A DNA stretch of 64,000 bases, taken from positions 30,134 to 94,133 of IMG/VR virus record IMGVR_UViG_3300042453_004683, one strand, 5' to 3'. Positions within the stretch are counted from its first letter, which is position 1; each line of letters starts with the position of its first letter. Shown one piece after another: positions 11,275 to 53,772 of the stretch. Position numbers and translations under genes: made by a program. The DNA comes from a virus. Under the pieces are notes generated by a model. The model did not search any database. It was given only the letters and a program-made list of their open reading frames with translations, and was not told where the DNA came from.

Positions 11275-11440
11275 TGGGCAGCGGCGAAAGTTGACAGGTG
11301 GGCGCAGGATACCGCTCATGTTCTGCGAGAATGCGTCAGGGGTCTATCGTAGGGTATATAATCGAAATCGCCGAGAACGTGGTAACGAGCGGCGATCTCA
11401 CCGCCGGGGGTGATCCACTATCCTCCTAAGATCCTATAGA
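11275..11440 (-). repeat. dispersed modular non-coding element, copy A
   Basis: GATCTTAGGAGGATAGTGGATCA (11433-11411), identical to 29880-29902; two TCGCCGC boxes 108 bp apart. Confidence 0.85.
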
Positions 11441-11579
11441 CCCGTGCGCCCTGGATCGCGTCCGGCGTGGACCCCGTAGGGCGGGAGCCGGGAGGCTACC
11501 GGGCTATGACCTGGCCGGCTGGGTCATGTGCAAGCGGTAGAAGGGGCGGCTGAGACATAGGACATGAAGTCAACTGGTG

Positions 11580-12240
11580 CAAGGGGTGTAAGTCAGAAGA
11601 AGGGGTCGGGGTGGTGCGCGGCAGCGCACCGGGGGGCGCGACCGGGGGGCCTGGTGGCGGCGCGGCAGGCGGCGGGCGCGCTTGTGGGTGGGGTGCGGGG
11701 TTGTGCGGGGGGCGCCCGCTACCCGGCGGGGGGTGCGCGCTTCCCCTCCCGTCAGGCGGTGTGGCGCGTGGTAGACCGTGCCCCGTCTCACCCACGGTCG
11801 GCGGGCGCGCGGCGGCGGCCCGGACCCGCGGGGTCCTACGCTGCTCACCCCGTGAGGGACCGCGGGGCAGGGCAGGGGAAGAAGGGGTCAGGGTCGGCGG
11901 CGGGCGGGCGGGCGGGCGCCCCGGGCCCCGGGCCTGCGGGCGGACGTGGCCCGTGCTCGCACGCTACGGGCCCCAGGAGGCGCGTTGCCCCGGCGGGCGG
12001 GCCAGCGGTCGGGCCCCGGCGGGCGGCGCCTGGAAAGGGGCTTCCCGTGCAAGCGCGGGCGTCGGTGGTAGCCCCTACGTCAGACGGCTACCCGGAACGC
12101 GAGAAAGCCCCGACGGGCGGACCGTCGGGGCAGGCGGGGCAGGCGAGGTCAGGCGGGCGCGCGGCGGGCGGGCGGGCGGGCGGGCGCCCGCGGCGGCTAC
12201 GGGCGACGGGCGGCGGGCGACGGGCCCGGGGTCTCAGCAA
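11580..12240 (+). other. strongly G-skewed non-coding tract with (GGGC)n runs
   Basis: GGGCGGGCGGGCGGG at 11902-11916 and 12166-12184; no credible CDS. Confidence 0.65.
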
Positions 12241-12691
12241 CCCACGTCAGGAGGGCCAGCCCGACAAGCGCGGCGGCGCCAGCGCCCGACCCTGCGAGGG
12301 CGAACCACGGGATCGCGATCGCAAGGGCCAGCGTGCACGCTGCCCCGACGGCGGGCCCGGCGGCATCGGCCATCGTCGCGCCCGCGGCATCGGCCCAGCG
12401 CCCGAAGGCGCGGCGGGCCAGCGCCAGCGCCCCGACGACACCCCCCGCGGCGGCCCCGGCGGTCCGGGCGGCGGCCCCGATCGCCTTGCGGGGCGTGGTC
12501 CGGGCGGACGCGATCACGCGCTGACCGCGGGCCCCGTTCGGGCGGCGGCGGGAGATGACGATCGCGCACTCGATGTCAGCGCAGACGGTCCAGAGCCCGA
12601 CGACGGCGGCAACCGCGAGGGCCAGCGGCGCCAGCGCGAGACAGGCGAGGGAGGCGAGGGTCAAGGCGAGGGCGGCGGGGACGAGCAGCAT
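12197..12691 (-). CDS. membrane protein
   Basis: GGAGTG RBS as in the early genes; several Ala/Leu hydrophobic helices. Confidence 0.6.
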   Translation of the reverse strand: MLLVPAALALTLASLACLALAPLALAVAAVVGLWTVCADIECAIVISRRRPNGARGQRVIASARTTPRKAIGAAARTAGAAAGGVVGALALARRAFGRWADAAGATMADAAGPAVGAACTLALAIAIPWFALAGSGAGAAALVGLALLTWVAETPGPSPAARRP

Positions 12692-12902
12692 TGTAGGCAC
12701 TCCAAGTTGAGGGGCGGCGGCGCGCCCCGGGGGAACACTCGCCACGTAATGCGGCATCGGATCCGGGCAAGGCGAGATTAGCGCACAAGCGACGGAAAGT
12801 TGAAAGCGTCGGGCGGGCGGGCGCTTTCGACGATCGGCGGGCGGAGTGTTCACCGCTTTCACCGTTATATCTGTAGGGCCCGACGGCGGGCGGCGGGTGG
12901 TC

Positions 12903-13177
12903 CTCGAGAAGCTCGAGCCTATCGGCATTCTCGAGAATGGGATCCTCGAGCGGCGCGCGGCTGGGCTCGAGCGGCGGCGGGGTCAGCTCGCGAGCGGGTC
13001 AGCTCGACAGACGGGCGGGCGGAACTCGACACTCGACACGGGCGGGCGGGCTCGACACTCGGATCGCCCCCAAGTACTGCGACCAGGTTGTGTACCTGTA
13101 TCTTATGCTGCAACGCAGCATGACCATAAACGATGGATCACCTTGCTCTATGGATCGCGCTGATCGGCATTCTCGAC
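12903..13177. repeat. CTCGAG/CTCGAC cluster
   Basis: CTCGAG at 12903, 12912, 12930, 12945, 12966; CTCGAC at 13003, 13025, 13032, 13051, 13172. Confidence 0.9.
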
Positions 13178-13243
13178 AATCGAGGGTCGGCCCTATGCTG
13201 CAACGCAGCATGACGGGCCAGGTCCTATGCTGCACCGCAGCAT
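13105..13243. promoter_or_regulatory. three 17-bp palindromes ATGCTGC-A(A/C)C-GCAGCAT (PhaR-type operator)
   Basis: Copies at 13105-13121, 13195-13211 and 13227-13243. Confidence 0.75.
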
Positions 13244-13327
13244 GACGGCTGGAAGGTCGAGAACGTCGGCCCTATGCGGATCGTAGCGGTTTCTATCGCT
13301 TGCCTACAAATATCTGCCCCGCTCCCC

Positions 13328-13356
13328 TTGGCGGCGGCGAGCGCCCGCCATATGAT
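13328..13356 (+). promoter_or_regulatory. early sigma70-type promoter
   Basis: TTGGCG-N17-TATGAT; upstream AAATATCT also precedes the promoter at 16426. Confidence 0.75.
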
Positions 13357-13428
13357 GTCTGTGCCACCCAGCGGCGCGCCCGACGCGCCCGCTCCCCTCC
13401 CCTCCCCTCCCCCTCCGGAGTGTGCCCC

Positions 13429-13740
13429 ATGACCGATCCCGCGCTTGACCCCCGCTGCTCCTCCTGGACCTTCAATGCGGACGGTACGCTGACCGTCCGG
13501 GCCCCCGCGGGGCAGGAGCGCCCCATTCGGGCCCTCATGGCGGCTATGGGCTACGTCTGCCCCATCGTGGAAGACATGCCCGATGGTAGCGTGCTCATGC
13601 ACGATTCCCGCGCGATTGTCGAGATCTTCAATGACTGGCCCGTCAGCGGCCGCCGGTGCGACCCCGACCCCGAGGCCCCCGGCGGGCCGTGGTATGACGG
13701 CCCGGATCGCTGCGTGGTCGACGTGCTCAACCGCTACTGA
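13429..13740 (+). CDS. early hypothetical protein
   Basis: GGAGTGTGCCCC-ATG start signal. Confidence 0.75.
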   Translation: MTDPALDPRCSSWTFNADGTLTVRAPAGQERPIRALMAAMGYVCPIVEDMPDGSVLMHDSRAIVEIFNDWPVSGRRCDPDPEAPGGPWYDGPDRCVVDVLNRY

Positions 13741-13743
13741 CCT

Positions 13744-14175
13744 GCCCGCCCCCTTGCGGGGGCCCCGCGTTTGCCCTATCGGTATGCGTACTGGTAGGGC
13801 ATACCCGGCGCCCCGGCCCGGATTGTGCGTTTCACCTATTGGAGTGTTCCCGATGTCCCGTCGAACGATGGTTGAGATTGTTGATTGCTACGAGGATCCC
13901 GCGCTTGCTGCGGGGCGCGCGTGGCTTGAGGCCCGCCGGGAAGCGGATCGCCTCAGCGCGATCGCGCGGCATACCCCGTCCTATGCGGACCGGGCCCGCC
14001 GGGCCCGTGAGGATGTCGCCTTGCTTGAGGCCCTCATCCACCAGAAGTACGGTACCCCGTAGCCCGCCCCCTTGCGGGGCCCCGCGCTTGACGGATCGGC
14101 GTCGTGTCGATCCGTCAACCCCGGCGCCCCGGCCCGGATTGTGCGTTTGCTTTCAACCTGTATGGAGTGTTCCCT
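13744..14175 (+). repeat. repeated structured intergenic element (copies at about 13744-13852 and 14062-14175; diverged copies at about 14667-14817 and 15640-15779)
   Basis: Identical 29-mer at 13804-13832 and 14120-14148; central hairpins differ in sequence. Confidence 0.85.
13853..14062 (+). CDS. early hypothetical protein
   Basis: GGAGTGTTCCCG-ATG. Confidence 0.75.
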   Translation: MSRRTMVEIVDCYEDPALAAGRAWLEARREADRLSAIARHTPSYADRARRAREDVALLEALIHQKYGTP

Positions 14176-14664
14176 ATGTCCACCGACACCCGTTACCGCG
14201 TCCTCTGCGCCGATGTCTCCCCCCTCGACCACGGCGGTACGTTCTACCGCGGCAACCTGACCGATGGGTTTGACGTGTTTGAAGTACAGCCCGTCGTCGC
14301 CTTTGTGGGCGAAGACGAGGCGGCCGATGTCGGTTTCCCCTTCTGGAGCCGTGAGTCCTTCCACGATCGGGAGGACATCGCCGCTACCCTGTCCGATCGG
14401 CTCACTCTCGGGTACGTCGGCGCCGATCGGCTGCTCGGTCGCGATGTCGACAGCCTGACGGACGCTGAGATCCTTGAGGTTGTGTACGCTCGCCATGCGG
14501 TCGGCTGCGGTACCGACGAGGGCCCCGCGGGGTGGAGCGCGGATCTCCCCCTTGAGGATCTCGGGATCGATCCCGCTGACGGCGCGGCGGCCGATGATGA
14601 CTTTCGGCGCGATGTCCTCGGGGAAGACGACGACACCGACGACGACACCGACGACGGCGAATAG
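14176..14664 (+). CDS. early, highly acidic protein (candidate DNA mimic)
   Basis: GGAGTGTTCCCT-ATG; about 40 D/E, 11 R and no K. Confidence 0.75.
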   Translation: MSTDTRYRVLCADVSPLDHGGTFYRGNLTDGFDVFEVQPVVAFVGEDEAADVGFPFWSRESFHDREDIAATLSDRLTLGYVGADRLLGRDVDSLTDAEILEVVYARHAVGCGTDEGPAGWSADLPLEDLGIDPADGAAADDDFRRDVLGEDDDTDDDTDDGE

Positions 14665-14817
14665 CAGCCCCGCCCCCGCCCACCGTCGGCGGGTCGCCCC
14701 GATGACACCGGCTTAGCCGCTGGTGTCATCCGGCCGGCTCACCCTGAACGGTTGTTCATGGCCCGGATCCGTCAGTCAACCTGGCGCCGTTGCGCGCCTA
14801 TGCCCGGAGTGTTCCCT

Positions 14818-15144
14818 ATGTCCGATGTCAAGCCGCCCCGCCTCCCCCCGATCGATACCCTCGCCCGCATCGTGGCCGATGTCCGGCGGGATCTCTACCG
14901 CTACGACGCTGACGACGTGCCCTATATCCAAGTCACGATCGGGATCGACGGCCGCGGCGGGTGGGGCTACCAGACGGGCGATAACTCGTATTCCGGCGCG
15001 GCCTACCACTACCCGTACTGGGGTGTCGCCGAAGTCTACCGCCGGCGCGACGTGCGCGAGACCGCGCGAGACGTGGCCCGTCAGCTCCGCAACGATGCCG
15101 CAGAAGCGTACTGGGCCAGCGAACCCTACGCCCCCCGCGAGTAA
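14818..15144 (+). CDS. early hypothetical protein
   Basis: GGAGTGTTCCCT-ATG; WGYQTGDNSYSGAAY. Confidence 0.75.
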   Translation: MSDVKPPRLPPIDTLARIVADVRRDLYRYDADDVPYIQVTIGIDGRGGWGYQTGDNSYSGAAYHYPYWGVAEVYRRRDVRETARDVARQLRNDAAEAYWASEPYAPRE

Positions 15145-15240
15145 GCCCCCGCTGGCGCCCGCCGTCCCCTCCCGTTCCCCTCTCAACCCGCCCGCCCCGG
15201 CGCCGTCAGCCGGCGGGCCCCTCAATACGGAGTGTTTCCT

Positions 15241-15636: not shown

Positions 15637-15779
15637 CCCCGCCCGGTAGCTTCCCCGCCCCGTCGGGGCGCCCCGCCGGTACCACGGCTGACCCGCCGAT
15701 CGTGGTACCCGCCGGCCGCTGGCCCGATGTCTCTCCCTCAACCCCCGGCGCCGCCGCGCGCCTCCCTCAGGAGCGTTCC

Positions 15780-16381: not shown

Positions 16382-16425
16382 CTGCCCCGGCACGGGGGAA
16401 AGATTAGAAATATCTCCCCCGGCCC

Positions 16426-17175: not shown

Positions 17176-17213
17176 GCCCCTCCGTCTCAACGTCCACACT
17201 TGGAGTACGCATC

Positions 17214-26289: not shown

Positions 26290-26382
26290 GGTTGACGGCG
26301 GTGGAGGGCCGAGGTACTTGTGTGGAAGCGGCGGGCAGCGAACCCGCCGGGCACCCGACCCCGCAACACCAGGAGAACACGC

Positions 26383-28866
26383 ATGAGCAAGACCCTGACC
26401 GCCAGCCTGTCCCGTGCCGTCAACGAGAAGGACGTCGAGAACGCCTACCGCGCGGCCGTCACCGACGTGGTGGGACCGTCCGTCGCCTGGACGTCGCCGC
26501 ACCAGACCGACGGCGTGGCGACCTGGACGACCGCGCCCGCCACCGTCCGGCTGCTGCTGGAGGCGAAGTTCCAGCAGGACCTGAAGTCCCGCGTCGGCGC
26601 GTGCAACGTCCTCGGCCAGATGATCCTCTACCTCAAGCGGTTCGAGGCGGCCGGCGACGCCGTGCCGAACGTGCTCCTGGTCGGCGACAAGGACGAGTGC
26701 TTCGTCCTCTCCACCGACGCCGTGCGCGGCTTCCTGGCCCTCGACATCGACTGGTCCGTGGCGCCCAGCAAGGGCAACCCCGACCTCACCCGCGCGCTCG
26801 TCCAGGGCGTCAACCTCATGCCCTACGTCTACGACACGACCGGCGCCTTCAACTTCCGCGACGTCATCGCCAAGGTCGACGCGCTCGCCCAGGGCGTCGC
26901 GCACCAGGTCCGCGCCACGCCCTCCAACATCAGCGCCATCTTCGCCTACTGGCGTGACCGCGTGTTCCGCAAGGGCGACGGCAAGCACGCGCTCACCGCG
27001 ACCGAGCAGGTCGACGTGTTCCTGCGCTGCCTGTTCCTGCCGACCGACGTGGCGCTGCACCCCACCAAGAAGGGCGTCCTCATCGTCCCTGGCTACCAGG
27101 ACGGCGTGCTCGTGAACGCCGACCAGTACGCATCCTTCTTCAGCCACTTCGTCCAGGGCTACAAGCCCGCCGAGGTCGAGCACTTCTACGCCAACAAGGA
27201 CCGCCTCGTCGACGAGGACGACCGGCGCCGGCAGGGCGCGTTCTTCACGCCCGCGCTGTGGGTCGCGGAGGCGCACCGCGAGATGGACCGCGTGCTTGGC
27301 GAGGGCTGGCGGCGTGACTGCGTGGTGTGGGATCCGGCTGCCGGGACCGCCAACCTCACCCGGGACTACACGGACTGGGGCTGCCTGATCTCCTCGACGG
27401 CTGAGAAGGCCGACGTCAAGGTGATGCGCGAGAACCGCTGGGGCGGGCAGGTGTTCCACTACGACTTCCTGAACGACGACGCGCCCTCGCCGTTCTTCGG
27501 CCCCGACGACGGCGACAACCGCATCCCGTCCGCCGTGGACCGCGTGCTCCGCGAGGCTGCGAAGGCGGGCAAGCGGCTGGTGTTCCTGGCGAACCCGCCG
27601 TACGGTACTGCGGGTGTTCTGGGCAAGGACAGCAAAGAGGGGATTGCGACCAACGCCACGAACGGTCACATGAAGAAGGCAAAGATGGGCAAGGCGGCAA
27701 GCCAGCTCTACGCGCAGTTCATGTTCCGGTTCATGCAGATCGCGCAGCAGTACGGGTTCACGCGCACGACGGTCGGCCTGTTCAGTCCGCTGAACCACAT
27801 GTGCAGCGGCTCCTACGCCAGGTTCCGCCAGTGGTGGTACGCGCGGAACGCCTACCAGGGCGGCTTCATGTTCCAGGCGTCGCACTTCGCCGACGTGTCC
27901 GGCGCGTGGGGCATCTCCTTCACCGTCTGGTCGGAGGGCACGACGCCCCTCAACCGCGACATCGAGATCGACCTGCGTGACGTCGCCGACTTCCAGGTGC
28001 GGAGGATCGGCGGGAAGATGCTCGCCGCCCCTGATGGTCGAGGGGCGACGGACTGGCTGGCTGAAAGTGCTTCAAGCCCCAACGCGGACGCACCAAAGTT
28101 CTCCAGCGGGCTGAACCTGTCCGATGCGTGGGACGGCGGCTGGCGCTCTGACGCGATCTGCGGCTTCGTCGCAAAGGCCAACTGCCCGCAGCAGCAGCAG
28201 ATTGTGTTCTGGCTGTCGGGACCGTTGACCGACAAGCGTACGAAGACGTCGATCGTCTGCGACAACCGGGCGTGGCGCCGTGCCGTCGCCCTGTTCGGTG
28301 CGCGGAAGCTGGTGACCGGCAACTGGATCAACGACAAGGACGAGTACCTCGCCCCCGACGAGGCCGCCGCCGGCTACGACCAGTGGGTCAACGACTGCCA
28401 CATCTACGCCCTGCTCCACCCGTCCAACAACTGCACGGCCATGCGCGACGTGCAGTACAAGGGCAAGTCCTGGCGCATCAAGAACAACTGGTTCTGGCGC
28501 ACCCGCACGGACACGCTCGCCGCCACCAACACCGTCAACACCGGCGGGCTCTACCGCGACGCGCGTGCCGAGAACGAGGACGCCTACTTCGCCAAGGTGA
28601 TCGACGGGCTGGCGCTTAGCGACGACGCCCGGCGCGTCCTCGACCTGGTGGACACGCTCTGGCTCAAGAGCCTCGACGTCAGGGAGGACTTCGCCGCGGG
28701 CCACCCCGACCTCCACCTGATGGCGCACGACGCCGGCGTCTACCAGCTCAAGCAGCTCTGGAAGGCGCTGTACCCGACGGAGTGGGAGGAGATCCGCGCG
28801 GCGCACAAGGCGCTCGCCGACCGCCTCCGGGATGGCGTCTACGACTACGGCTTCCTCCGCCGGTAG
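26383..28866 (+). CDS. fused restriction endonuclease-N6A methyltransferase (type IIG-like)
   Basis: N-terminal TDG...LEAK...QMILY PD-(D/E)XK motif; GAFFTP, WDPAAGTANL, NPPY. Confidence 0.8.
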   Translation: MSKTLTASLSRAVNEKDVENAYRAAVTDVVGPSVAWTSPHQTDGVATWTTAPATVRLLLEAKFQQDLKSRVGACNVLGQMILYLKRFEAAGDAVPNVLLVGDKDECFVLSTDAVRGFLALDIDWSVAPSKGNPDLTRALVQGVNLMPYVYDTTGAFNFRDVIAKVDALAQGVAHQVRATPSNISAIFAYWRDRVFRKGDGKHALTATEQVDVFLRCLFLPTDVALHPTKKGVLIVPGYQDGVLVNADQYASFFSHFVQGYKPAEVEHFYANKDRLVDEDDRRRQGAFFTPALWVAEAHREMDRVLGEGWRRDCVVWDPAAGTANLTRDYTDWGCLISSTAEKADVKVMRENRWGGQVFHYDFLNDDAPSPFFGPDDGDNRIPSAVDRVLREAAKAGKRLVFLANPPYGTAGVLGKDSKEGIATNATNGHMKKAKMGKAASQLYAQFMFRFMQIAQQYGFTRTTVGLFSPLNHMCSGSYARFRQWWYARNAYQGGFMFQASHFADVSGAWGISFTVWSEGTTPLNRDIEIDLRDVADFQVRRIGGKMLAAPDGRGATDWLAESASSPNADAPKFSSGLNLSDAWDGGWRSDAICGFVAKANCPQQQQIVFWLSGPLTDKRTKTSIVCDNRAWRRAVALFGARKLVTGNWINDKDEYLAPDEAAAGYDQWVNDCHIYALLHPSNNCTAMRDVQYKGKSWRIKNNWFWRTRTDTLAATNTVNTGGLYRDARAENEDAYFAKVIDGLALSDDARRVLDLVDTLWLKSLDVREDFAAGHPDLHLMAHDAGVYQLKQLWKALYPTEWEEIRAAHKALADRLRDGVYDYGFLRR

Positions 28867-28959
28867 CTGTTGACGTCGGACGGATCAACAGATACACCAA
28901 CAGTGCCTGGCGCCATCGACGCCGGGCGCCCCCAACCCACCAGCAGGAGAACCACCACC

Positions 28960-29622
28960 ATGTTCCTCAACCCGACCGCGCTCAACAACTTCATGGCCGC
29001 CCTGGCCGACGCCCGCCGCACCATCGAGGAGCGCGCCGTTGCGCTCGGGACGACGCTCAGCGACGACGACCTGAAGGCGCTCGCCACCGGCGGCAGCACC
29101 AACACCGGCTGGCTCGGCAGCATCCCCGTCCACATCCCCGACGGGAAGGGCGGCGCCTACAAGACCGAGTGGACGCTGTTCGACCACCCGCAGATCGGCA
29201 CCGTCAAGCTGAACTTCTGGCACGCGCCCGACCCGCGGCGCATCCCGCACAACCACCCGTGGCGGTACGAGTACCAGTCGTTCGAGTCGCGCATCATCTC
29301 GGGCGGCTTCAAGGAGACGTGCTACCGCGAGTCGCCGACCGGGCTCTACTACTCGTTCGAGAAGTACGTCTACCCGGATGGCCTCTACAACGTGAACTCC
29401 ACTGATGACGGCATCTACCACACCGTCGATGAGGTCGAGCCCGGCACCATCACGCTGATGGTCTGCGGGCCCCGCAAGCCGGAGTGGGGCTACCTCTTGC
29501 TCGGTGAGCGTGATGAGAACGGCTACTTCACCGGCGAGGAGGTCCGCTTCGACGACCCGCGCGTCGCCGACCCGGGCTTCCGCGAGGCGTTCCTGGTGCT
29601 CAACCCGATGAAGCGGAAGTAG
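28960..29622 (+). CDS. cupin-like (HxHPW) metal-binding protein
   Basis: PHNHPW...IISGGFKE...YHTV...TLMVCGP...WGY. Confidence 0.7.
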   Translation: MFLNPTALNNFMAALADARRTIEERAVALGTTLSDDDLKALATGGSTNTGWLGSIPVHIPDGKGGAYKTEWTLFDHPQIGTVKLNFWHAPDPRRIPHNHPWRYEYQSFESRIISGGFKETCYRESPTGLYYSFEKYVYPDGLYNVNSTDDGIYHTVDEVEPGTITLMVCGPRKPEWGYLLLGERDENGYFTGEEVRFDDPRVADPGFREAFLVLNPMKRK

Positions 29623-29872
29623 ATACAGGCCACACACGCGCCAGCGCGTCCAGACGCCGCCAGGCCAGGCCGGGTTCACAGCCCGCCCTGGCCTTCGCCT
29701 TTGGGGCGAGCGCGCCTTCCCGGCCCCGTTCTGTGCAACGGCGGCCCCGTCCTGCCCCGCCCTCGCCCGCCCCTCGCCCGCCCCTCCTGTAGTATTCCAG
29801 GAGCACGGAGGACGACTGCCCCTCGCGAGGTACGGCTGCCGCTCGGACCCACGGTGCCACGCGCCACGTCTC

Positions 29873-30136
29873 TCTCTACGATCTTAGGAGGATAGTGGAT
29901 CAGGCGGTTGTCAACATTCGCCGCTGCCCACGGCGTTCTCATGCGGTCGAGGGCAGTCCTGTACGGTATCAACCCGATACGTTTCGGCCTCCCTTTGGCG
30001 CGTCGCGCATAGTGGATCGGACGCCGAGCCACCATCGTAGCCGACCGGCAACCGGCGAGAACACCGTAACCGCAGGCGAAAGTGGAAACCGTGCGGGCCA
30101 ACATCGCACCGGAAGCGGCTTGCTCCAGCGCGCCGA
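29873..30136 (+). repeat. dispersed modular non-coding element, copy B
   Basis: Box 1 at 29880-29902, box 2 at 29909-29940, inverted box 2 at 30057-30088, box 3 at 30118-30136. Confidence 0.85.
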
Positions 30137-30269
30137 CACGCCATCCGCGAGGAACATCCTTGCACGGTTACGTCCGGCGTGTTACTGGAGGGGCGGCCGC
30201 ATCGTGCGGCATGTTCACCCCCCGCTGCCGGCGCCTCCGCCGCCAGCCCCTTCACACTGGAGACCCGCC

Positions 30270-30626
30270 ATGTCCGACACCGAGACCTCCGCCGTCGACA
30301 CCGAGACCGCCGCCACCTCCACGCGGAAGACGCTCGCCCTGAGCCTCCGCATCCTCGCCCGCGAGCTGGGCGACAACGTGTTCGACATCAACACCGCCGC
30401 CGCCACGCTCAGCATCGGCCGCAACGGCATCAACGCGAAGCTCAACGCGCTGATGCGCTCCGGCGCCGTCGAGCGCGTCGAGCGCGGCCGCTACCGCATC
30501 AGCACCTGCCTCAGCATCGACGAGATCGCCGACGCCCTCGACGCCTCCGACGGCCGCCGGAAGTCCTGGACCGACGAGCGCCGGCAGAAGGCGAGCGAGA
30601 CCCGCAAGGCCCGCAGCGCCGCGTGA
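30270..30626 (+). CDS. winged-HTH DNA-binding protein
   Basis: AAATLSIGRNGINAKLNALMRSGAVERVERGRYRI; NUMOD3-like tail; promoter at 30160-30188. Confidence 0.8.
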   Translation: MSDTETSAVDTETAATSTRKTLALSLRILARELGDNVFDINTAAATLSIGRNGINAKLNALMRSGAVERVERGRYRISTCLSIDEIADALDASDGRRKSWTDERRQKASETRKARSAA

Positions 30627-30662: not shown

Positions 30663-32051
30663 CTACCCGCTGCCGAACAGCGCCCCGCGGAAGCTGTAGC
30701 CGAGGATCGCCGTCTGCCGGCCCCCGATGATGAACTCACGGGCGGTCTGGCAGGCGGCGATCCAGTCGTTTCCGGCGGCGGCGCGCTTGCCCGTGGCGGA
30801 CACGTCCACCAGGACGAGCCCCTCCTCCGCCCACTGGCGGAGCAGGACGTTGGCGTTGTTGCCCGTCTCGCGCGCCCACTGGAGCATCTTCGGCGCGGTG
30901 ACGAACCCGTCCTCGCCAGGCGACACGGGCCACGCCCCAACGAGCGTCTCCTGCCCGCTGTAGCCGAGGCCAAGCACCCGGCTCGGCTGGCTCGCCATCC
31001 AGGACAGCAGGCCCGCGAGGGCGTGCGCGCCCCGGTCTGTGGCGCCCGCGGTCACCGCGACGCAGGACCGCAGCTCCTCGATGAGCGCGAGAGTGTCGAC
31101 GGGAGCAGCGATCGTGGCGTCGGCGTTCACCATCTCGGCTGCCAGCGCGATGAGCGCGGCGTACCGCGCGACCCGCCGGACGGTCGCATCCGTCTCGGCT
31201 GTACCACCGGCAAACACCGTATGCCACTTGGCGAACTGCCCGACCAGGCGGTTGAGCCCGCCGTCCTTCGACCGGACGATGCGAACTGCGGCGACGGCGA
31301 AACGCTGCCCGATGTGCCCGCTGCCGGCGGCGATCTGCACCTTCAGCGCGGCGACGTCCCGGCCGGCCTCGGCGGATACGCCCCCGAAAGGCGACCGCGG
31401 CAGTGGCAGCAGGCGCGCCTTGGCCCCCGTCCGCGTGCGGGTGAGGTTGAGCAGCAGCTCCTCGTTGGTCGAGGCCGCGATGGAGTGCCACTCGCGGACG
31501 CCTCCCGTCGCGTCGTGCGTGAACCTCCCCTCCTGGAAGGCGTACACGAAGTCGAGGAACGTGGCCGCGCCGCCCTTGTCGGTGCGCGCCTGCCCCTCGT
31601 TGACCAGGAGCGGCAGGTTGCGGAGGACGGCCGCGTGCCGGAGGAGCGCCGCGTCCTTGGTGCGCCAGCTCTCGCGGAGGCAGCCGGGCGCGCCCCACAT
31701 GCTCTCCATCGCGGAGAGCGCCACGGTCTTCCCGGTGCCGGACGGTCCGCCGATGTCGAGCACGAAGGGCTCGATGTCCGCCCCGGCCTCGCGGAGCGGC
31801 TCGATGAGGATGGACGCGAGGCTGGCGAGGCACGCGACCTGGAGGCCCGGGTAGCGGCGGACGATCTCCCAGGCGGCGACCGACGCGGACGGGTCGCCCG
31901 TCGGGCGGATCTTGCTGTACGGGAACGTCGACCGCGCCGGCGGGATGAACTTCGGCGCGTGCGGCATCGCCGGTCCGAGGCGAAGCGCGGGCAGCATGAA
32001 GTGGCCGGTCGGCTGGAACCCGTAGTGGTGCGTCTTGCTTTGATCTGCCAT
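30663..32051 (-). CDS. DUF927-type replicative helicase/ATPase
   Basis: GPSGTGKT, SWRT, LPLLVNE, ASTNE and ARLL motifs; possibly leaderless (TATGCT 6 nt before the ATG). Confidence 0.8.
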   Translation of the reverse strand: MADQSKTHHYGFQPTGHFMLPALRLGPAMPHAPKFIPPARSTFPYSKIRPTGDPSASVAAWEIVRRYPGLQVACLASLASILIEPLREAGADIEPFVLDIGGPSGTGKTVALSAMESMWGAPGCLRESWRTKDAALLRHAAVLRNLPLLVNEGQARTDKGGAATFLDFVYAFQEGRFTHDATGGVREWHSIAASTNEELLLNLTRTRTGAKARLLPLPRSPFGGVSAEAGRDVAALKVQIAAGSGHIGQRFAVAAVRIVRSKDGGLNRLVGQFAKWHTVFAGGTAETDATVRRVARYAALIALAAEMVNADATIAAPVDTLALIEELRSCVAVTAGATDRGAHALAGLLSWMASQPSRVLGLGYSGQETLVGAWPVSPGEDGFVTAPKMLQWARETGNNANVLLRQWAEEGLVLVDVSATGKRAAAGNDWIAACQTAREFIIGGRQTAILGYSFRGALFGSG

Positions 32052-38941: not shown

Positions 38942-39871
38942 ATGGCATCCGCCTCCACTCACAACGGCGTCCCGCTACTGTTCCGCTACCCTGGGGCCAA
39001 GGGCCGCGCCATCATGGCGTACGGCGCCGCCTACAAGGCGCAGGCCGCCGGCGTCAACCACCTCATCATCCCGTTCGCCGGGTCGCTGGCGGAGCCACTC
39101 TGGCTGCTCGCCGAGGGCGCGCTCCAGGACGACGTGACGCTCGACGTCAACGACGCGAACCCGCACGTCGCCAACCTCTGGCGAGCGGTCACGACCGACG
39201 GCGCCCTGCTCGCCGAGCTGACGCGCGACCTCGTGTGCGAGTGGAACGAGATGCCGATCGACCGTGACACGCGCGTGGCCGCCTTCAAGGCGCTCCGCGG
39301 GCAGGTCAACCAGACGGTGTTCGGGGCGGCCCCGACGGCGGGCCTCTACGGCAGCACGCTCCAGGCGGCGAGGTTCCTTCTGTTCCAGGCCACCGGCTAC
39401 AACGGTCTGTTCCGCGTGAACAGCGCCGGGAAGATCAACACGCCCTACGGCACCGAGAAGGACAAGACCCCGCGGCAGCTCAACGTCGAAGCCCACGTCC
39501 AGAGCATCCAGGCGGCGGTGCGGCTGCTCGACAGGTGCAGCGTGCGGGTCACCTGCAAGGACTGGCGCGACACGCTGGTGTTCGACCCCGGCAGAGCCGC
39601 CGAGGACACCCTCGTCATCGCGGACCCTCCGTATCATGGTACGTTCAGCACCTACACGGCCGACGGCTTCGCCGACACGGACCACATCGAGCTGGTCCAG
39701 ACGCTCGCCGACGCGCCCTGCCGGGCCATCGTGACCAACAGCCCGTCGGCGCGCTCGCTGTTCGACGACCGCTGGGACGTCAGCGACCACGAGGTCCGGC
39801 GGTCCATCGCGCCGACGGCGAAGGGCCGCGGCGACGCGGGCGAGATCCTGGCCGTCAAGCGGGTGGGGTAG
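38942..39871 (+). CDS. Dam-like (D12 class) N6-adenine methyltransferase
   Basis: RYPGAK, PFAGS, NDAN, GYNGLFRVNSAGKINTPYG, DPPY. Confidence 0.9.
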   Translation: MASASTHNGVPLLFRYPGAKGRAIMAYGAAYKAQAAGVNHLIIPFAGSLAEPLWLLAEGALQDDVTLDVNDANPHVANLWRAVTTDGALLAELTRDLVCEWNEMPIDRDTRVAAFKALRGQVNQTVFGAAPTAGLYGSTLQAARFLLFQATGYNGLFRVNSAGKINTPYGTEKDKTPRQLNVEAHVQSIQAAVRLLDRCSVRVTCKDWRDTLVFDPGRAAEDTLVIADPPYHGTFSTYTADGFADTDHIELVQTLADAPCRAIVTNSPSARSLFDDRWDVSDHEVRRSIAPTAKGRGDAGEILAVKRVG

Positions 39872-39875: not shown

Positions 39876-42824
39876 ATGACGTGCTCCTTCAACGGCGCGA
39901 AGTGTGACGTCTGCCCGCTCGGCCCGAAGGGCCCGCTCCGGGACGCCGACCGCCCCTGGCAGCCCGTCGCCCACGAGGATCACCGCATGAGCGGCGCGGA
40001 GATCATCGCGGTGCATCAGGCGCCCGAGATCGAGGACGAGAAGCGAGGCAGCCTGCTGTCCGGCCGGAACGGCGGCACCTGGGCGCGCGGCCTCAACAAC
40101 GCGGGCCTCCGCCGCGTGGACGTCAGCTCGACCACGGTGATCGCGTGTGCACCGCCCGGCGCGCCAGGCGGCGCCTACCGCCGGATGGAGGACATGCTCC
40201 GGCGGCTCAACAAGCGGGCCGCCAAGGAGGGGCTGCCGTCCTGGCCGCACCCGCGGGACTGTTGCCGACCGCGCCTGGAGATCGACCTGCTCGGCTACAA
40301 GAACGTCCTGCTCATGGGCAAGACCGCGGCGGTCGCGCTCGCGGGCCTCAACCGCGACATCAAGAAGACCCGCGGCGCGCCCATCGGCATCGACGAGGGT
40401 TGGCAGGCGGTCCCGCACGACAGCGACCGGGCGGTCCACCTCGCGCTGCCGACGCTCGACGTCTCCTTCGTCGCCAAGAACGGACACTTCGTGTCCGTGT
40501 GGGTGCGCGACATCGCCAAGGCGCGGCGGCTGTTCGAGGGCGCGTTGCGCTGGCGCGACCCCGAGATGCTCTGGCGGCCGACGCCGGACGAGCTGCGCTT
40601 CTGGCTCCGCGGCTTCAACGGCTGTCCCGACAAGACCGCCGTGTTCGACGTGGAGACGTCCCGCCACCACCAGGGGATGCGGCCCCGCGCGCTGAAGCTC
40701 TACACGCTGTCCATCGCGCGTTGGAGCAAGCACGGCGAGGGCTCCACGATGGAGGCCGTCGGCATCGAGTTCATGGACCCGTCGACCGGCGTGAGGTGGT
40801 ACACGCCGGAGGCGGAGGCGGAGATCAAGGACCTGCTCCGGCGGTTCTTCACCGAGCAGCGCATCCCGAAGATGGGCCACAACGCCGGGATGTTCGACCG
40901 CGCCGTGATCGAGGAGCACTTTGGCGTCACGCCCGTGCCGCTGATCGACAGCATCTTCGCCACGCGGGCGGCGAACCCGGGGCTGCCGAAGGGCCTCAAG
41001 CCGACGGGGCGGACGTTCACGGACGTCGGCGAGTGGGACAGCGACGACAAGGACGAGGACGGCGGCGGCGCGGACAGCAAGAACGCGACCACGCTGTTGC
41101 GGTACAACATGATGGACTGCGCGGTCAACCTCGCGCTGTGGCCCACCGTCCGCGACATCGCCGCCCGTGCGGGCTACTACACGCCCATCCGGCAGGACCT
41201 GGCGGACATGATGCTCCCGCCCGAGCGGCGGGGGCAGCCGCTCACGCTCAACGAGATCGACCACGCGGCGCAGGACCGCGGCCTCCGCATGACCGACGCC
41301 GGGCTCTGGATCGACCAGCGCCTCCGGGCGGCGATGCAGGAGGACGCCGAGAAGCAGGCGGCCACCATCCTCCGGCTCCTCCAGGCGCGGCTGAAGGCAG
41401 CGGGCGCGGCCGTCCTTGCCGATGCCGACCTCGACATCGAGGAGGACGACGATGGCGTCGAGATGAACCCGAACTCGACCGCGAGGTTGCGCGCGCTCTA
41501 CTTCGGTCCGCCGGACGAGGGCGGGTGGGACCTCCCGTTCCTGCCCAGCGAGGGCGGCGTGGACAGCGCGGGCAAGCCCCTCTACAGCCGCAAGGACTTC
41601 CTGACGGGCACAGGGGACATGTCCACGTCGGACGCGGTGCACCGCGCGTACCTCGCCAGCGGCGTGCTCCGGCCGGACCAGTTCGAGATCATGTACCTGG
41701 TCCGCGTGTACCGGCGGATCAAGACCAAGATCGTCGGCACCACGCTCCGGCCACTGGCGCCCGAGCAGCCCATCTACAAGGCAGGTGTCCTCCGCGGCTT
41801 CACGAAGTCGTGGGTCCACGGCGACAACCGCGTCCACAGCATCTTCTCGGCGCACGTCACCAATGTGGGACGTTACGCAAGTAGTTCGACAAACGTCATG
41901 AACGTCGGCAACAAGAAGGGGCAGGGGCTCCTCAAGACCGTGTTCGCTGCGCCGCCGGGCTACTTCTTCGTCGGCGCGGACCTGAACCAGGCGCACCTGT
42001 TCATCATCGCCAACGTCTGGCAGATCCCCGCGCTGTGCGAGGCCATCGCCAACGGCTACGACCCGCACAACTTCAACGCCTCGACCACGTTCGGGCGGAC
42101 CTTCACGGAGGCGCCCGGCTACAACGGCCTCAAGGACAAGCCCTCCAAGGGCACTCCCGCAGAGGCCATGCGGAACGTCATCAAGACGTTCATCTACGCT
42201 TCCGTCTACGGCGCCATGCCCGAGACCATCTGGCGCGTGCTCACCTCGACGGAGACGGACCCTCCCCCGGCGTGGCTTGACCGAGTGCTCTCGCGCGACG
42301 ACCAGCTCAACATCAAGGAGCTGGTCCGGCAGACGATGCCCTACCTGCTGAAGTCGCTGGACGACGTGAGGATGATCCACGAGAACTGGCTCAAGGGCCA
42401 GCCCGAGTGGCTGGACGCCTGGCAGCGGGAGATCGACTTCTACTCCAAGCACGGCTACGTCCAGTCCTACCTGTTCGGGCGGCGGTCGGGCGACCTCGGC
42501 GAGGACCAGAACAAGGTCACGAACTTCGGCGTGCTTGCGACGGAGAGCGACATCATGCGGATCGTCGAGAGCCGCATCGACCGCGAGTTCCCGGGCAAGA
42601 TCGTCTACCAGTGCCACGACAGCGCGGCGATCTGCCTCCCGCTGCCCGCGGGCTACGCGCCCGACTGGCGGCCGGCGAAGGACGCCAAGGGCAAGTACGT
42701 GTGGCCGGCCGAGTTCGAGGAGGTGCGCCGGCGGTTCGAGGCGTGCTTCCACGTCCAGGTCCCGGGCTGGCGCTTCCCGATCAGCGGTGAGGCGGCCCTC
42801 GGCTTCAACCTCCACGAGGTTTGA
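39876..42824 (+). CDS. polA: family A DNA polymerase with an N-terminal family-4 UDG-like domain and a 3'-5' exonuclease
   Basis: CxxC Fe-S UDG-like N-terminus; FDVET, GHNAGMFD, YNMMD exonuclease motifs; GADLNQAH, KTFIYASVYG, CHDS polymerase motifs. Confidence 0.92.
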   Translation: MTCSFNGAKCDVCPLGPKGPLRDADRPWQPVAHEDHRMSGAEIIAVHQAPEIEDEKRGSLLSGRNGGTWARGLNNAGLRRVDVSSTTVIACAPPGAPGGAYRRMEDMLRRLNKRAAKEGLPSWPHPRDCCRPRLEIDLLGYKNVLLMGKTAAVALAGLNRDIKKTRGAPIGIDEGWQAVPHDSDRAVHLALPTLDVSFVAKNGHFVSVWVRDIAKARRLFEGALRWRDPEMLWRPTPDELRFWLRGFNGCPDKTAVFDVETSRHHQGMRPRALKLYTLSIARWSKHGEGSTMEAVGIEFMDPSTGVRWYTPEAEAEIKDLLRRFFTEQRIPKMGHNAGMFDRAVIEEHFGVTPVPLIDSIFATRAANPGLPKGLKPTGRTFTDVGEWDSDDKDEDGGGADSKNATTLLRYNMMDCAVNLALWPTVRDIAARAGYYTPIRQDLADMMLPPERRGQPLTLNEIDHAAQDRGLRMTDAGLWIDQRLRAAMQEDAEKQAATILRLLQARLKAAGAAVLADADLDIEEDDDGVEMNPNSTARLRALYFGPPDEGGWDLPFLPSEGGVDSAGKPLYSRKDFLTGTGDMSTSDAVHRAYLASGVLRPDQFEIMYLVRVYRRIKTKIVGTTLRPLAPEQPIYKAGVLRGFTKSWVHGDNRVHSIFSAHVTNVGRYASSSTNVMNVGNKKGQGLLKTVFAAPPGYFFVGADLNQAHLFIIANVWQIPALCEAIANGYDPHNFNASTTFGRTFTEAPGYNGLKDKPSKGTPAEAMRNVIKTFIYASVYGAMPETIWRVLTSTETDPPPAWLDRVLSRDDQLNIKELVRQTMPYLLKSLDDVRMIHENWLKGQPEWLDAWQREIDFYSKHGYVQSYLFGRRSGDLGEDQNKVTNFGVLATESDIMRIVESRIDREFPGKIVYQCHDSAAICLPLPAGYAPDWRPAKDAKGKYVWPAEFEEVRRRFEACFHVQVPGWRFPISGEAALGFNLHEV

Positions 42825-48576: not shown

Positions 48577-48641
48577 GGCGGCCTCCTGTGTTGAGCAGCC
48601 GACCACCTTGTACCTCGTCAACGCACGCCCGTCAACCCCCG

Positions 48642-51600: not shown

Positions 51601-52694
51601 CGGATGAACTCGATCCCGTCTTCGTTGCTGGACTGGATCGAAAGGAAGCGGCCCTCGCGCCCCTCCTTGTAGTTGACGGCGCCGTCGGCGTCCAAGTAAC
51701 CACGGATGAACGCGGTCAACTCGGCGATGTTCTCGGCGCCACCTTCGGGGAGGGTCTTGAGGTAGGATCCGAAGTAGAGGAGCGCATCACCGTTGAAGGA
51801 GGGCGGCGAGCAGTGACCGCACCCGAGCGCCTTGAAGCGGTCGAAGAAGCGCATCTTGTTGCCGCACAGGCGCACCGCGGACTGATGGTACTCCCCTCTG
51901 GAGTTCTTGAGCAGGGTGCCGTCGCCATACACGAAGCCCCGGGCCCACGCGATCTTCTCGTTCTCGGGTGCGGTAGCGTAGTCCCACCGGGAGACGATCT
52001 CGGGCGGAGGGAGGATGGCGTCGCCCACGCGGAGGTTCGTGGTGCGGCTGCCATCCGCCAGGAGCCACTGGTGATCGGCCGTCGCTCGCACGGTGACGGT
52101 TCCGCGGCCACGGGAGAAGCGGATCTTGTAGAGGCGCTGCTCGCCGAAGCAGCGGACGACGGCGGGCTTGTACGCTCCAGTGTGCGTCAGGACGCGCACC
52201 GTGTCACCGTCGTTGAAGTCGGCGAAGCTACGCACGCCCTGGTCGGTGATGAACTCCGTCTCAACCCCCAGACAGTTGTAGCTCGCCAGGTCGTTGACCT
52301 CCAGGACGTCGCCGGCGGCCCACAGGCCGCGCATCGACGGCATCACGTCGCGCAGGAACACGGCGCGGATGGCCTCGACCACCTTCTCGTCGAAGGCGTC
52401 GAGCATGATCAGCCGGGCGGACTTGTTGTCGTGCGCCCCGGCGATCTGCTGGTACATGCGGTGGCGCATGTACGCGCCCCACCGGATGACCGTCTCGCGC
52501 CAGGTCTCGCGGGCACCATCGCTCTTGATCCGGGCGTAGGTCCGCAGCCGGACCGCCTCGCTGGCGAGCCGAGCGCCCGGCGAGAGCGACGCGAGCGCGT
52601 CACCATCGGCGAGATCGGAGAGGGCGTTGGCGACGAACGCCTCGTGAGAGGCGCGGGAGTGGGCCCACTGGAGCCCGATCAGGTCGATGGTCAT
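48642..52694 (-). CDS. nrdJ: class II (B12-dependent) ribonucleotide reductase containing two inteins
   Basis: RTYAR, ETW.E, PSMR, GTGFG, ASGP, VRRSA, NPCMEI, KPDGN, C-terminal CxxxxC. Confidence 0.92.
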   Translation of the reverse strand: MTIDLIGLQWAHSRASHEAFVANALSDLADGDALASLSPGARLASEAVRLRTYARIKSDGARETWRETVIRWGAYMRHRMYQQIAGAHDNKSARLIMLDAFDEKVVEAIRAVFLRDVMPSMRGLWAAGDVLEVNDLASYNCLGVETEFITDQGVRSFADFNDGDTVRVLTHTGAYKPAVVRCFGEQRLYKIRFSRGRGTVTVRATADHQWLLADGSRTTNLRVGDAILPPPEIVSRWDYATAPENEKIAWARGFVYGDGTLLKNSRGEYHQSAVRLCGNKMRFFDRFKALGCGHCSPPSFNGDALLYFGSYLKTLPEGGAENIAELTAFIRGYLDADGAVNYKEGREGRFLSIQSSNEDGIEFIRSMFPSVGCYVTAERDLTGQTTNYGTRPTTSFFGLSQGFYPGTSGNFRAREIVEDAVEPVWCLVVEDDHSFVLPSGLVTGNCAFAPADSPAIFSEALFVLMQGTGFGFSVERKFVSKLPQPAVPQVCAIPRHVIEDSTDGWRRATAVGVRAWFMGGDVDFDYSRVRAEGTPLKTKGGEASGPEPLRKYLMALREAIRTAGYEKRKLAPVEVHDLLCLAGSIVQVGGVRRSAMISFSDRDDDDMRWAKHYPSAAANGTTIPEQRYQANNSWVIEPGDEVTWTDFSREWEILRSSGAGERGIVNTTRALYRGVPVRGNPCMEIWLAWLDALEMASRTGDYSSGGGQLCVAGDTPLITREGLTTIKDAVGKPVHIWNGEKWAKVQPFQTGTDQPLFRVKFSDGSHLDCTGGHRFLVSNIYTRNTKQAWREMTTAELAASVGDKTWATPQFRMDLADGTSVPYAYDLGVAIGDGYIQRRARKNFTSESVHVALMGAKIDKIPLEGVRHKRRRPAGYAVDKQTVRCVTVPVAEMAAIRADASALDAMFTWSRESILAFIAGWLDTDGSKNGKGGVRLYLSGEEHAKKVQLLLTRCGIRSSISLFAEEGAVTNYGTRSRNLYYICITDCADIPCKRLDTSGGHAPKFKSKYQTIRSIEALPGLHDTYCFEESERHMGVFNNTLTFQCNLSNIVLRPHDNGVTALRKADLAAFIGTMQACLTNFPGVRKGWEEVTRRDALLGVGLAGQVDALHISTNEATLTLMNACVERANLTWAARFGINEAAGLTCGKPDGNSSVFLGCSSGVHAHHALFYIRRFQVSARSPVCALLRAAGVPCIPTGEGVAAALEAGSLAPEAVGGWTFEVPVRAPEGAFTREDETAIQMLERIDLLNRSWLAVKGHNQSATVNVREHEWDEVGAWVFEHLDKIGGLSFFPYDDHVYYGAPLEEITEAEYEARLASLPEVDWSRMASFENGFAEGQQTFACTSGACSIV
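49563..50567 (-). mobile_element. intein 2 (335 aa) with LAGLIDADG endonuclease and C-terminal Gln
   Basis: CVAGDT start; LGVAIGDG and IAGWLDTDG; ends TLTFQ/C. Confidence 0.9.
51360..52274 (-). mobile_element. intein 1 (305 aa) with LAGLIDADG endonuclease
   Basis: CLGVET start; TADH block B; RGFVYGDG and IRGYLDADG; ends LVTGN/C. Confidence 0.9.
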
Positions 52695-52786
52695 GGTGCG
52701 CGGGGGTCCTTGCGGTTGGTGGGATCGTCGGCATGGCCGGCTGGCGGGCGTCGGACGGCGCCCGCTGGCTGCCGTCCCGCACACAC

Positions 52787-52984
52787 CTACAGGCCCTTGT
52801 GCTCTAACAGTCGGAGAGCGGCCTGCCAAGGCCGGAGGGCGCGGTGGAGATCGTCGGCCGCCAGCCGAAGGTCGGCGCGTCGGATGATCTCCGCATGGAG
52901 CTTCGCCTGCTCGGTCTGGAGCGTCGCCTCCTCGGACGGGTCCACCAGTCGGAGGGGTGATGCGGCGAGCGCAGGGCTACCCAT
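52787..52984 (-). CDS. small hypothetical protein
   Basis: GGAGG RBS; overlaps the upstream gene. Confidence 0.55.
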   Translation of the reverse strand: MGSPALAASPLRLVDPSEEATLQTEQAKLHAEIIRRADLRLAADDLHRALRPWQAALRLLEHKGL

Positions 52985-53297
52985 TGGTGCCTCCGACAGA
53001 GCGGATCCGGGCCAGGAGGTCCATGATCTTGTCGAGCGGCGGCTGCGACGCCAGGAGGGTGCGGACGTCGCCGCGCAGGTCGGACAGGGCACGCTCCGCC
53101 TCCCGGACGTACTCCTGAACCCGCTCGACGTCCGCCTCCACGCGCGTCAGCCGGTCGCGCAGCGCGGCCACGTCCTTGTCGTTGCCGCTGTTCTTCTGGT
53201 CCATCACCAGCTTGTAGATGAGCTGGAGGAGCATGGACATGACCGCCCCGCCGGCGAGGCCGGCTCCGGTGTCACTGAACACGGGGAAGCCCTCCAT
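52977..53297 (-). CDS. single-TM plus coiled-coil protein, holin-like
   Basis: N-terminal TM helix; lies in the lysis region; GAGGAGG RBS. Confidence 0.55.
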   Translation of the reverse strand: MEGFPVFSDTGAGLAGGAVMSMLLQLIYKLVMDQKNSGNDKDVAALRDRLTRVEADVERVQEYVREAERALSDLRGDVRTLLASQPPLDKIMDLLARIRSVGGTNG

Positions 53298-53312
53298 GCA
53301 CCACCTCCTCGG

Positions 53313-53567
53313 CTACTTCGCCAGCTTGCGGACGGGAGCCGCCGACCACATCCGGCAGGAGTGGTAGCGCGCCTTGTTCGGCGGGCCGGGATCGTCGCAG
53401 CCGTGCCGCGCCCGGAAGTTCTTGCGCCGTTCGGGATCGTCCCGCCGGATCTCCATGTCGGGGTCGCCGAACCGCACGGTGTACGGCTTGCCTTCGTAGT
53501 TGCCGGTCGCCACGAACTTCTTGCGGCCGTAGCCGGGCTCACCAGGACGGATGCGGCGGGTGGACAT
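53313..53567 (-). CDS. small basic conserved viral protein
   Basis: VRFGDPDM...DPERRKNFRARHGC...W motif. Confidence 0.75.
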   Translation of the reverse strand: MSTRRIRPGEPGYGRKKFVATGNYEGKPYTVRFGDPDMEIRRDDPERRKNFRARHGCDDPGPPNKARYHSCRMWSAAPVRKLAK

Positions 53568-53615
53568 CGAGGGCTCCTGGGGCGTGCGATCCACGTCGGT
53601 AGTAGTCTACTAATC

Positions 53616-53772
53616 GAGGATAGTGGATCAGTGGATTTCGGTTTCGCCGCTGCCTACGGCGTTCTCGTCAATCGTGGTGTTCGGCTGTCGGCGCGTTTGG
53701 CGCGTTGGAGCAAGCGGTTTCGGGCTGTTCGGAGGCGACCTGTCAACTTTCGCCGCGAACCACGGCGTTCTC
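53616..53772 (+). repeat. dispersed modular non-coding element, copy C
   Basis: Box 1 at 53616-53630, box 2 at 53642-53666 and 53741-53772, box 3 at 53697-53715. Confidence 0.85.

Follow-up and report, generated by a model that had tools for sequence, protein, structure and literature searches.

The stretch of DNA analysed here (64,000 nucleotides; "the window" in what follows) comprises bases 30134-94133 of the 94,133-bp virus record IMGVR_UViG_3300042453_004683, from an uncultivated phage of about 70% G+C. Our subject is a module of short non-coding words, termed Box 1, Box 2 and Box 3, which occurs at three dispersed loci of the window, A, B and C, and probably at a fourth on its left edge. 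The module is a real, conserved, composite control element in a new phage lineage. About 100 genes were called in the phage by codon-position composition, among them those for PolA, a helicase, a DUF927 primase/helicase, an SbcC-like protein, ribonucleotide reductase, dUTPase, RNase H, thymidylate synthase, DHFR, two C5 methylases and a D12 N6-adenine methylase. No DNA match to the phage genome was found among GenBank phages, and the protein matches there were remote only; the lineage is one without a cultivated relative, in which function is unassigned for most genes.

The ordinary promoter motif of the phage is TTGACG-N17-TA(C/G)nnG, with around 25 such sites in the window and GC often lying just 5' of them. 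This motif resembles the Caulobacter RpoD consensus TTGaCgS/GCtANAWC (PMC8144410), a likeness of sequence that may be taken as a lead to an alphaproteobacterial host in lake water and as nothing more.

The features at the three loci, together with the neighbouring genes, are listed below. The core sites contain Box 2, in some copies with a TGTCAAC pre-box; L027-L034 are strain variants of all three loci, 87-99% identical, found in lake metagenomes.

11554-11582, minus strand: promoter-like TTGCAC-N17-TATGTC upstream of module A, inside a stretch of about 360 nt that is near-invariant in L033
11411-11433, minus strand: Box 1 of locus A, a 23-mer with GTGGATCA and two GATC; matches 29880-29902 at 23 of 23 positions and is unchanged in L033 and L034
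11372-11402, minus strand: core site A1 of locus A, Box 2, GTGAGATCG type; nhmmer E 1.9e-5
11270-11296, minus strand: degenerate second core A2 of locus A, with TGTCAAC pre-box; 108 bp after A1, direct
11037-11065, minus strand: phage-type promoter TTGACG-N17-TACGTC, gene-proximal, downstream of module A
29880-29902, plus strand: Box 1 of locus B, unchanged in L027 and L032 although the bases just upstream vary
29909-29940, plus strand: core B1 of locus B, TGTCAAC pre-box and Box 2
30007-30018, plus strand: second Box 1-like word of locus B, GCATAGTGGATC
30056-30081, minus strand: core B2 of locus B, convergent with B1, anchors 161 bp apart
30118-30136, plus strand: Box 3 of locus B
30160-30188, plus strand: phage-type promoter TTGCAC-N17-TACTGG before the winged-helix gene
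30270-30626, plus strand: gene for a winged-helix protein of 118 aa, candidate reader of the module
30663-32051, minus strand: DUF927 primase/helicase gene, convergent with the winged-helix gene
38942-39871, plus strand: gene for a D12-class N6-adenine DNA methyltransferase, a possible GATC methylase; PF02086 E 3.9e-13, DPPY motif, orthologue in the relative G001 (below)
53616-53630, plus strand: Box 1 core of locus C
53640-53667, plus strand: core C1 of locus C
53697-53715, minus strand: Box 3 of locus C, on the opposite strand to that of B
53741-53773, plus strand: core C2 of locus C, with TGTCAAC pre-box; 106 bp after C1, direct

The original prediction, made from the letters alone, had described a Box 1 shared by loci A and B and shortened at C, and this arrangement was recovered: the 23-mer is the same at 11411-11433(-) and 29880-29902(+), and its 15-nt core occurs again at 53616-53630(+). 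The word at 30007-30018(+), fourth of its kind, was absent from that first list. Box 2, TCGCCGC-N6-ACGGCGTTCTC, is exact at three places (29918-29940, 53644-53666 and 53750-53772) and degenerate at three more, 11373-11395(-), 11270-11296(-) and 30057-30079(-); its pattern has 5 matches in place of 0.21 expected, a number reached in none of 100 shuffles. The gaps of 15, 15 and 13 bp between Box 1 and Box 2, and the distances of 108 bp (A) and 106 bp (C) from one Box 2 to the next, were confirmed, as was the inversion of the second Box 2 in copy B, where site B2 lies on the minus strand and converges with B1. The two Box 3 copies stand on opposite strands in B and C (4 matches to the pattern against 0.14 expected), and the statement that Box 3 comes ahead of the second Box 2 at both loci is true when strand is considered, by 38 and 34 nt. 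When all intergenic regions were compared with one another, the pairs among A, B and C were among the top matches between different regions (E 1.6e-7 to 4e-5).

The loci are indeed intergenic, with no coding signal in regions 212-1206 bp long. Every copy falls inside these three long non-coding regions, or four with the edge copy, and nowhere else in the 94 kb. The edge copy is a weaker Box 2-like one. It stands about 85-110 bp to the left of the first base of the window, flanked by the gene for a 1065-aa helicase-like protein on one side and by the window's first gene on the other. Its locus (genome 29855-30135, window -278 to 2) is a divergent promoter region in which the Box 2-like core GAGATCGCCGCTCCCTACGCGATCCTC stops 3 nt before the -35 of a TTGCCG-N17-TACGTG promoter, and in which the word TACGCGATC is common to the counterpart in the relative described next. 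It is probably a fourth module locus. Outside the phage, the composite pattern gave one chance match in a Bacillus contig of 41% G+C and none in IMG/VR, and metagenome matches that carry the module are strain variants of this same phage. The original prediction had allowed that the boxes might match a known insertion sequence end or a host repeat; no such match was found.

A distant relative was reached through a homologue of the primase (45% identical). This is G001, an IMG/VR contig of 96,570 bp, syntenic with the present phage and with proteins 30-78% identical. IMG/VR gave G001 only, and no other members of the clade were found; two further primase homologues, P0002 and P0003, stand at 85-86% identity. 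G001 has a repeated module of its own at four intergenic regions (39997-40303, 52287-53464, 69938-70369 and 90994-91536), which share blocks of 17-26 nt that are 100% identical among themselves. Flanking orthologues equate these regions with the edge locus, A, B and C respectively. The matching intergenic regions are otherwise unalignable between the phages, with GTGGATCAG, TACGGCGTTCTC and TACGCGATC persisting at matching loci.

Fifteen copies from both phages align free of gaps around a core of approximately GTGAGATCG-yyG-N7-TAC-GCGTTCTCG, and the profile built from this alignment matches, at E<0.05, only these copies in either genome. The words that survive between the phages are GTGGATCAG, GTGAGATCG and TAC-GCGTTCTC. 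In each phage the first of these precedes the invariant TCG of the core by 21-25 nt at three loci. In outline, a module comprises Box 1 (GTGGATCA), a core of about 30 bp (GTGAGATCG ... TAC-GCGTTCTC) whose invariant TCG follows after 21-25 nt, and a second core site, whose distance and orientation are fixed for each locus.

Pair distances were taken between the invariant TCG of each core. The pair at locus A is direct in both phages, at 108 bp here and 107 bp in G001, and the pair at locus B is convergent in both, at 161 and 160 bp respectively. Locus C of the present phage has a direct pair at 106 bp, and the G001 loci C' and D' have divergent pairs at 78 and 79 bp. The spacers between paired sites are largely diverged, and in neutral DNA so diverged gains and losses of bases would be expected, yet at loci A and B the spacing is kept to within 1 bp. 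This conserved pair geometry is the most telling result of the analysis. Loss of the boxes in relatives, which the original prediction had said would speak against it, is not what is seen: in the distant relative a related module stands at the syntenic loci and its spacing is preserved, and it is because that relative has its own version, in the same places and at the same spacing, that we regard the module as a real control element.

Gene content next to the module differs between the two phages. In G001, five genes that point rightward, one of them encoding a GmrSD_N domain, separate the locus-C module from the amidase gene (positions 91537-94198). These five genes at C' are absent from the present phage, and A' and B' adjoin other genes too.

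The structural genes have a control region of a different make. The divergent region between two structural-gene blocks (genome 18490-18716) shares 22 nt at 100% and 32 nt at 94% with G001; it carries other conserved words and lacks the module, and it may be a separate, late-class control region. The different words there suggest cis elements specific to gene class. Upstream of module B, a stem-loop formed by GGCCAGGCCGGG...CCCGCCCTGGCC and followed by TTCGCCTTT (29660-29710) lies directly 3' of the gene ending at 29622; it is likely the terminator of an early rightward operon, so that module B may start a separate unit. Next to locus C is the gene for an 84-aa protein (53313-53567, minus strand), 79% identical in G001, to which neither family nor function is assigned. 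Its relatives are widespread, in phages of many types and on at least 262 IMG/VR contigs; in other phages this gene lies inside operons, with no equivalent of locus C. Near locus A, 11600-12200 is very G+C-rich and has no clear reading frame, and the 23-mer GGCGGGCGGGCGGGCGGGCGCCC is repeated exactly there, 268 bp apart (about 11899-11921 and 12167-12189).

The sequence of the sites is conserved and their structure is not; they are confined to a few control regions and paired at fixed distances, and their words differ between the phages while agreeing within each. Together, these features point to a phage-encoded, sequence-specific DNA-binding protein. The constancy of Box 1 among the strain variants, even beside bases that vary, is likewise in favour of this reading. 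Since the sequence is conserved while neither covariation nor excess RNA stability is found (figures below), recognition would be of the DNA sequence. We tentatively propose, as a possible and to us the preferred reading of these sequences, that the modules are paired docking sites for such a protein, which would control the non-structural operons. From the sites observed, their confinement, conservation and spacing, we infer the binding of a protein, its likely identity and transcription as the output. The protein, bound at a primary site (Box 1 plus core) and at the secondary core, would bridge or wrap some 80-160 bp of DNA where the non-structural units begin, namely those of the helicase/primase, the winged-helix protein, ribonucleotide reductase and a block of small genes, and the complex would turn these units on or off together as one regulon.

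The leading candidate for the reader is the winged-helix protein encoded at 30270-30626, which may regulate its own gene through locus B. The original prediction had pointed to this gene, directly after copy B, and the gene is real: a winged-helix fold is predicted, its position is conserved in G001, and its G+C content at third codon positions (GC3) is near 1.0. The protein has a match to AbiEi_4 under the curated cut-off. Its structural model has a core predicted local distance difference test (pLDDT) score of about 90, the nearest solved folds being MarR-type regulators at a weak E of about 2e-3. The syntenic homologue in G001 is only 27% identical (E 8e-7), whereas neighbouring genes are 45-75% identical, a difference that fits co-evolution with changing sites. 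The suggestion that a Dam-like methylase might gate the element also has its gene, in that a D12-class (Dam-family) N6-adenine methyltransferase is encoded and is conserved in G001. With GATC inside the conserved words, methylation-sensitive binding is possible, and the phage D12 methylase might provide it, but GATC is common genome-wide (668 sites, compared with 723 expected from trinucleotide counts).

Several observations weigh against the proposal of paired docking sites. The distance of the sites from the nearest TTGACG-type promoter ranges from about 0 to 280 bp, with no consistent overlap, and is not conserved. Profiles built from a single phage hit the right loci of the other genome but weakly (E 0.13 and 0.2); A1 is the best match of this genome to the profile from the G001 copies alone, though at that E of 0.13. 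The comparison itself rests on two diverged genomes. Copies exchange sequence in the strain variants, and identity of copies within a genome could be due to gene conversion and not to a shared reader. The sites are asymmetric, while winged helices of MarR and AbiEi type usually bind inverted repeats. Locus C points into the 3' end of the amidase gene, an orientation intelligible only if the module there is left over from the rightward genes that G001 retains.

The modules mark what appears to be a single co-ordinated set of control regions for replication and nucleotide-metabolism genes, with a testable candidate reader. Since the sites keep their position and spacing while their sequence shifts in step in each genome, a protein-DNA recognition code could be derived from natural variants.

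Other explanations are taken in order of declining probability. The main rival, which we consider unlikely, is that the modules are replication origins or loading sites for an initiator or helicase. The reader of such an iteron-like array would be one of three proteins, namely the winged-helix protein, the DUF927 primase-helicase and the 1065-aa helicase-like protein; host DnaA might assist at CTGATCCAC, and replication would start either at several places or at one with auxiliary sites in the manner of P4 ori/crr. Gene neighbourhood is in its favour, since in both phages locus B adjoins the winged-helix and DUF927 genes and the edge locus adjoins the helicase-like 'replication' protein; A and C, by contrast, are not adjacent to replication-initiator genes. 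DUF927 proteins act in staphylococcal islands as Rep initiators on iterons next to their own gene, and the sole phage-database match of the DUF927 protein here is to PT1028, which resembles a staphylococcal pathogenicity island (SaPI). The phage also encodes PolA, RNase H and the D12 methylase, a parts list that recalls P1 oriR and oriC.

The DnaA-like word cuts both ways. As the original prediction noted, a word in Box 1 is one base off TGATCCACA, which is the Caulobacter G-box recognised by DnaA (PMC4285127). The word CTGATCCAC is enriched in the modules, occurring 4 times per genome as opposed to about 0.8 expected, with 4 of the 4 G001 copies in module loci. In all eight copies it is followed by T, G or C, so that it matches TGATCCACA at 8 of 9 positions and never at 9, the ninth base never being A; the consensus compared is that of Caulobacter and not that of an identified host. 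Composition is similarly divided. Three of the four most GATC-dense 200-bp windows of G001 are module loci, but GATC is not special genome-wide, as the count above shows. The most A+T-rich 40-mers of the phage (40-42% G+C in a 70% G+C genome) include some at A, C and the edge locus, but none ranks at B and regulatory DNA is A+T-rich anyway. GC skew tracks transcription across the phage genome and gives no origin signal. Further, a locus has two core sites, be they direct, convergent or divergent, and not a phased iteron array, and four origins of one sequence type would be unusual; were the origin reading true, the phage would offer a rare case of several sequence-related origins in one genome.

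We judge it improbable that the modules are recombination-prone regulatory cassettes without a dedicated reader, duplicated remnants kept alike by gene conversion and serving as exchange points for gene blocks. In favour of this reading, copies of the module exchange sequence: in L027 and L032, locus B has the locus-A (A1-type) version in place of its own TGTCAAC pre-box and Box 2 loop. Variable gene blocks between close relatives adjoin loci A, B and C, as they do C', A' and B' in the comparison with G001. L032 lacks 26292-29638, with an 827-aa and a 220-aa gene, beside locus B, and in contigs of run X1 the stretch 28867-29631 is swapped for 36 letters of different sequence. The breakpoint is at 29632-29639 in both cases, some 240 bp ahead of Box 1 of B. 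The X1 contigs, whose kind is uncertain, represent strain variants only and contain no transcript ends. Loose ends among them hint at a locus C with a B-type Box 1 and one Box 2, which suggests a pattern as if C1 and C2 had recombined. Gene conversion accounts in this way for likeness within a genome, but not for words and 1-bp spacing kept between phages, and the modules have no recognisable promoter or convincing terminator: the T tract of a terminator is absent from them and only a 5-bp inverted repeat is present.

Quite improbable, too, is an unrecognised promoter class, which either the host RNA polymerase together with a phage factor or an undetected phage polymerase would use; Box 1 would then serve for recognition, and the transcript would start with Box 2. 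The modules C' and D' of G001 stand back to back in the manner of divergent promoters, and Box 1 of the present phage has TAGTGG, which fits the phage -10 TA(C/G)nnG; in two of three G001 Box 1 copies, though, AGCGTG stands there and not TA. No conserved -35 is found at any spacing. That the modules are not the phage promoter motif, as had been stated from the start, is borne out by scans inside them, which found neither TTGACG-N17-TACnnG nor a sigma-70 consensus site; such sites lie near the modules, not within. Each module-bearing unit has an ordinary promoter nearer its gene, so that a tandem of two classes is conceivable, but B2, C1 and C2 face away from any gene. By-eye readings of the modules as promoters of extracytoplasmic-function (ECF)-like, sigma-54-like or shifted -35/-10 type failed across copies. 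Neither Pfam nor PHROGs revealed a phage sigma factor or RNA polymerase among the proteins scanned, which were those of nearly all called genes.

Hairpin promoters like those of the N4 virion RNA polymerase were also considered and set aside. The giant gene of the phage is interrupted by the record ends (58614-63998, minus strand, plus genome 2-4240, minus strand), and the G001 version encodes 3729 aa. This protein has no match in Pfam, PHROGs or the PDB and none to a polymerase; weak leads from a protein atlas, to the 'large polyvalent protein' domains LPD23, LPD1 and ART-PolyVal, make it resemble a polyvalent protein and not a virion polymerase.

It is very improbable that the modules act as RNA, whether as nut/put-like antitermination or processing sites in leaders or as small RNAs that would extend from Box 1 as far as the second Box 2. 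A promoter-like site does lie about 115 nt upstream of module A, and in the diverged strain L033 some 360 nt, from that site (11582) through both A sites, are nearly unchanged while the flanks diverge. The 5-bp inverted repeat of Box 2 is kept in some G001 copies through U-G pairs and one C-G to U-A change. Its stem is nonetheless badly broken in 4 of 15 copies, and covariation equals that of shuffled columns (76.0% of cells paired as against 75.4%). The three regions fold no better than shuffled sequence (z -0.20, -0.17 and +0.92). No Rfam family was matched at gathering level, the hits at E 0.04-0.3 (noise at E<=1) being far under threshold, and no tRNA was found. Back-to-back modules, moreover, leave no space for upstream promoters. 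A leader peptide, or a longer winged-helix gene that would start at the GTG of Box 1, was rejected on the absence of codon-position signal, an indel in L027 that breaks the frame, and a length of 6 codons in copy A; the same indel shows that the module has no coding frame either.

Least probable of all, and hardly to be expected, is a coupling of replication and transcription, in which the four loci would both fire replication and switch on the replication and nucleotide-metabolism operons. Host DnaA at CTGATCCAC and the winged-helix protein at the adjacent cores would form one wrapped complex, GATC would be marked by the phage D12 methylase in a host without Dam, and the state of a locus would change once it was copied, giving a self-timed, multi-site switch of replication and transcription. 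By-eye checks for an alphaproteobacterial LexA box, a CtrA box, GANTC, IHF sites and parS showed them to be absent. The packaging checkpoint envisaged in the original prediction has nothing in its support. What stands of that prediction's broader proposal is a dispersed cis-acting system that is not due to chance and is not the ordinary promoter of the phage.

Among known systems, the promoter-early/stem-loop (PeSL) cassettes of T4-type phages (PMC2839356, PMC4122927) are, like the modules, short composite intergenic repeats that flank variable gene blocks and whose copies show signs of having recombined. The modules differ in being few and in having neither a promoter nor a supported stem-loop, and their words and spacing are conserved across diverged phages, which indicates sequence-specific recognition. 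Looping operator pairs offer a second parallel, lac O1-O3 being separated by 92 bp and gal OE-OI by 113 bp. Here, too, two sites some 80-160 bp apart stand at the head of an operon with their spacing conserved; unlike those of lac and gal, they are asymmetric and their pairs may be direct, convergent or divergent, and looping at them is our supposition.

Iteron-type origins form a third group. P4 has ori/crr, whose reader is the winged-helix domain of the alpha primase-helicase, P1 oriR consists of iterons, DnaA boxes and GATC repeats, and SaPI Rep-ori is another iteron-type system. Like these, the modules have repeated initiator-type words beside primase-helicase and winged-helix genes; some of their words contain GATC, one resembles a DnaA box, and there are several cis loci. 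They depart from them in having two sites per locus, loci spread over more than 50 kb and a DnaA-like word that is imperfect in every copy.

The remaining comparison is with dispersed operators. Phage P1 has dispersed C1 operators, and the Cluster A mycobacteriophages have operators or 'stoperators' of the L5 gp71 type (PMC9283540, PMC6550527). Compared with Cluster A, the present phage has 3-4 loci with 6-8 sites in place of more than 20, and a composite site of about 30-50 bp in place of 13-17 bp; its sites are paired at a fixed, locus-specific spacing, their orientation is not consistently with transcription (it is so for A1, A2 and B1 but not for B2, C1 and C2, divergent regions being uninformative), and no repressor or immunity context is seen. 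The original prediction knew of no described element of this form, which holds for the sequence and does not hold for the kind, since dispersed asymmetric protein-binding repeats are known in phages. The sequence of the module is new, and as a kind the module belongs with the dispersed protein-binding repeats of phage control regions: like the Cluster A and P1 operators, it consists of asymmetric, phage-specific words at several intergenic places, which differ between relatives and are presumably read by one phage protein.

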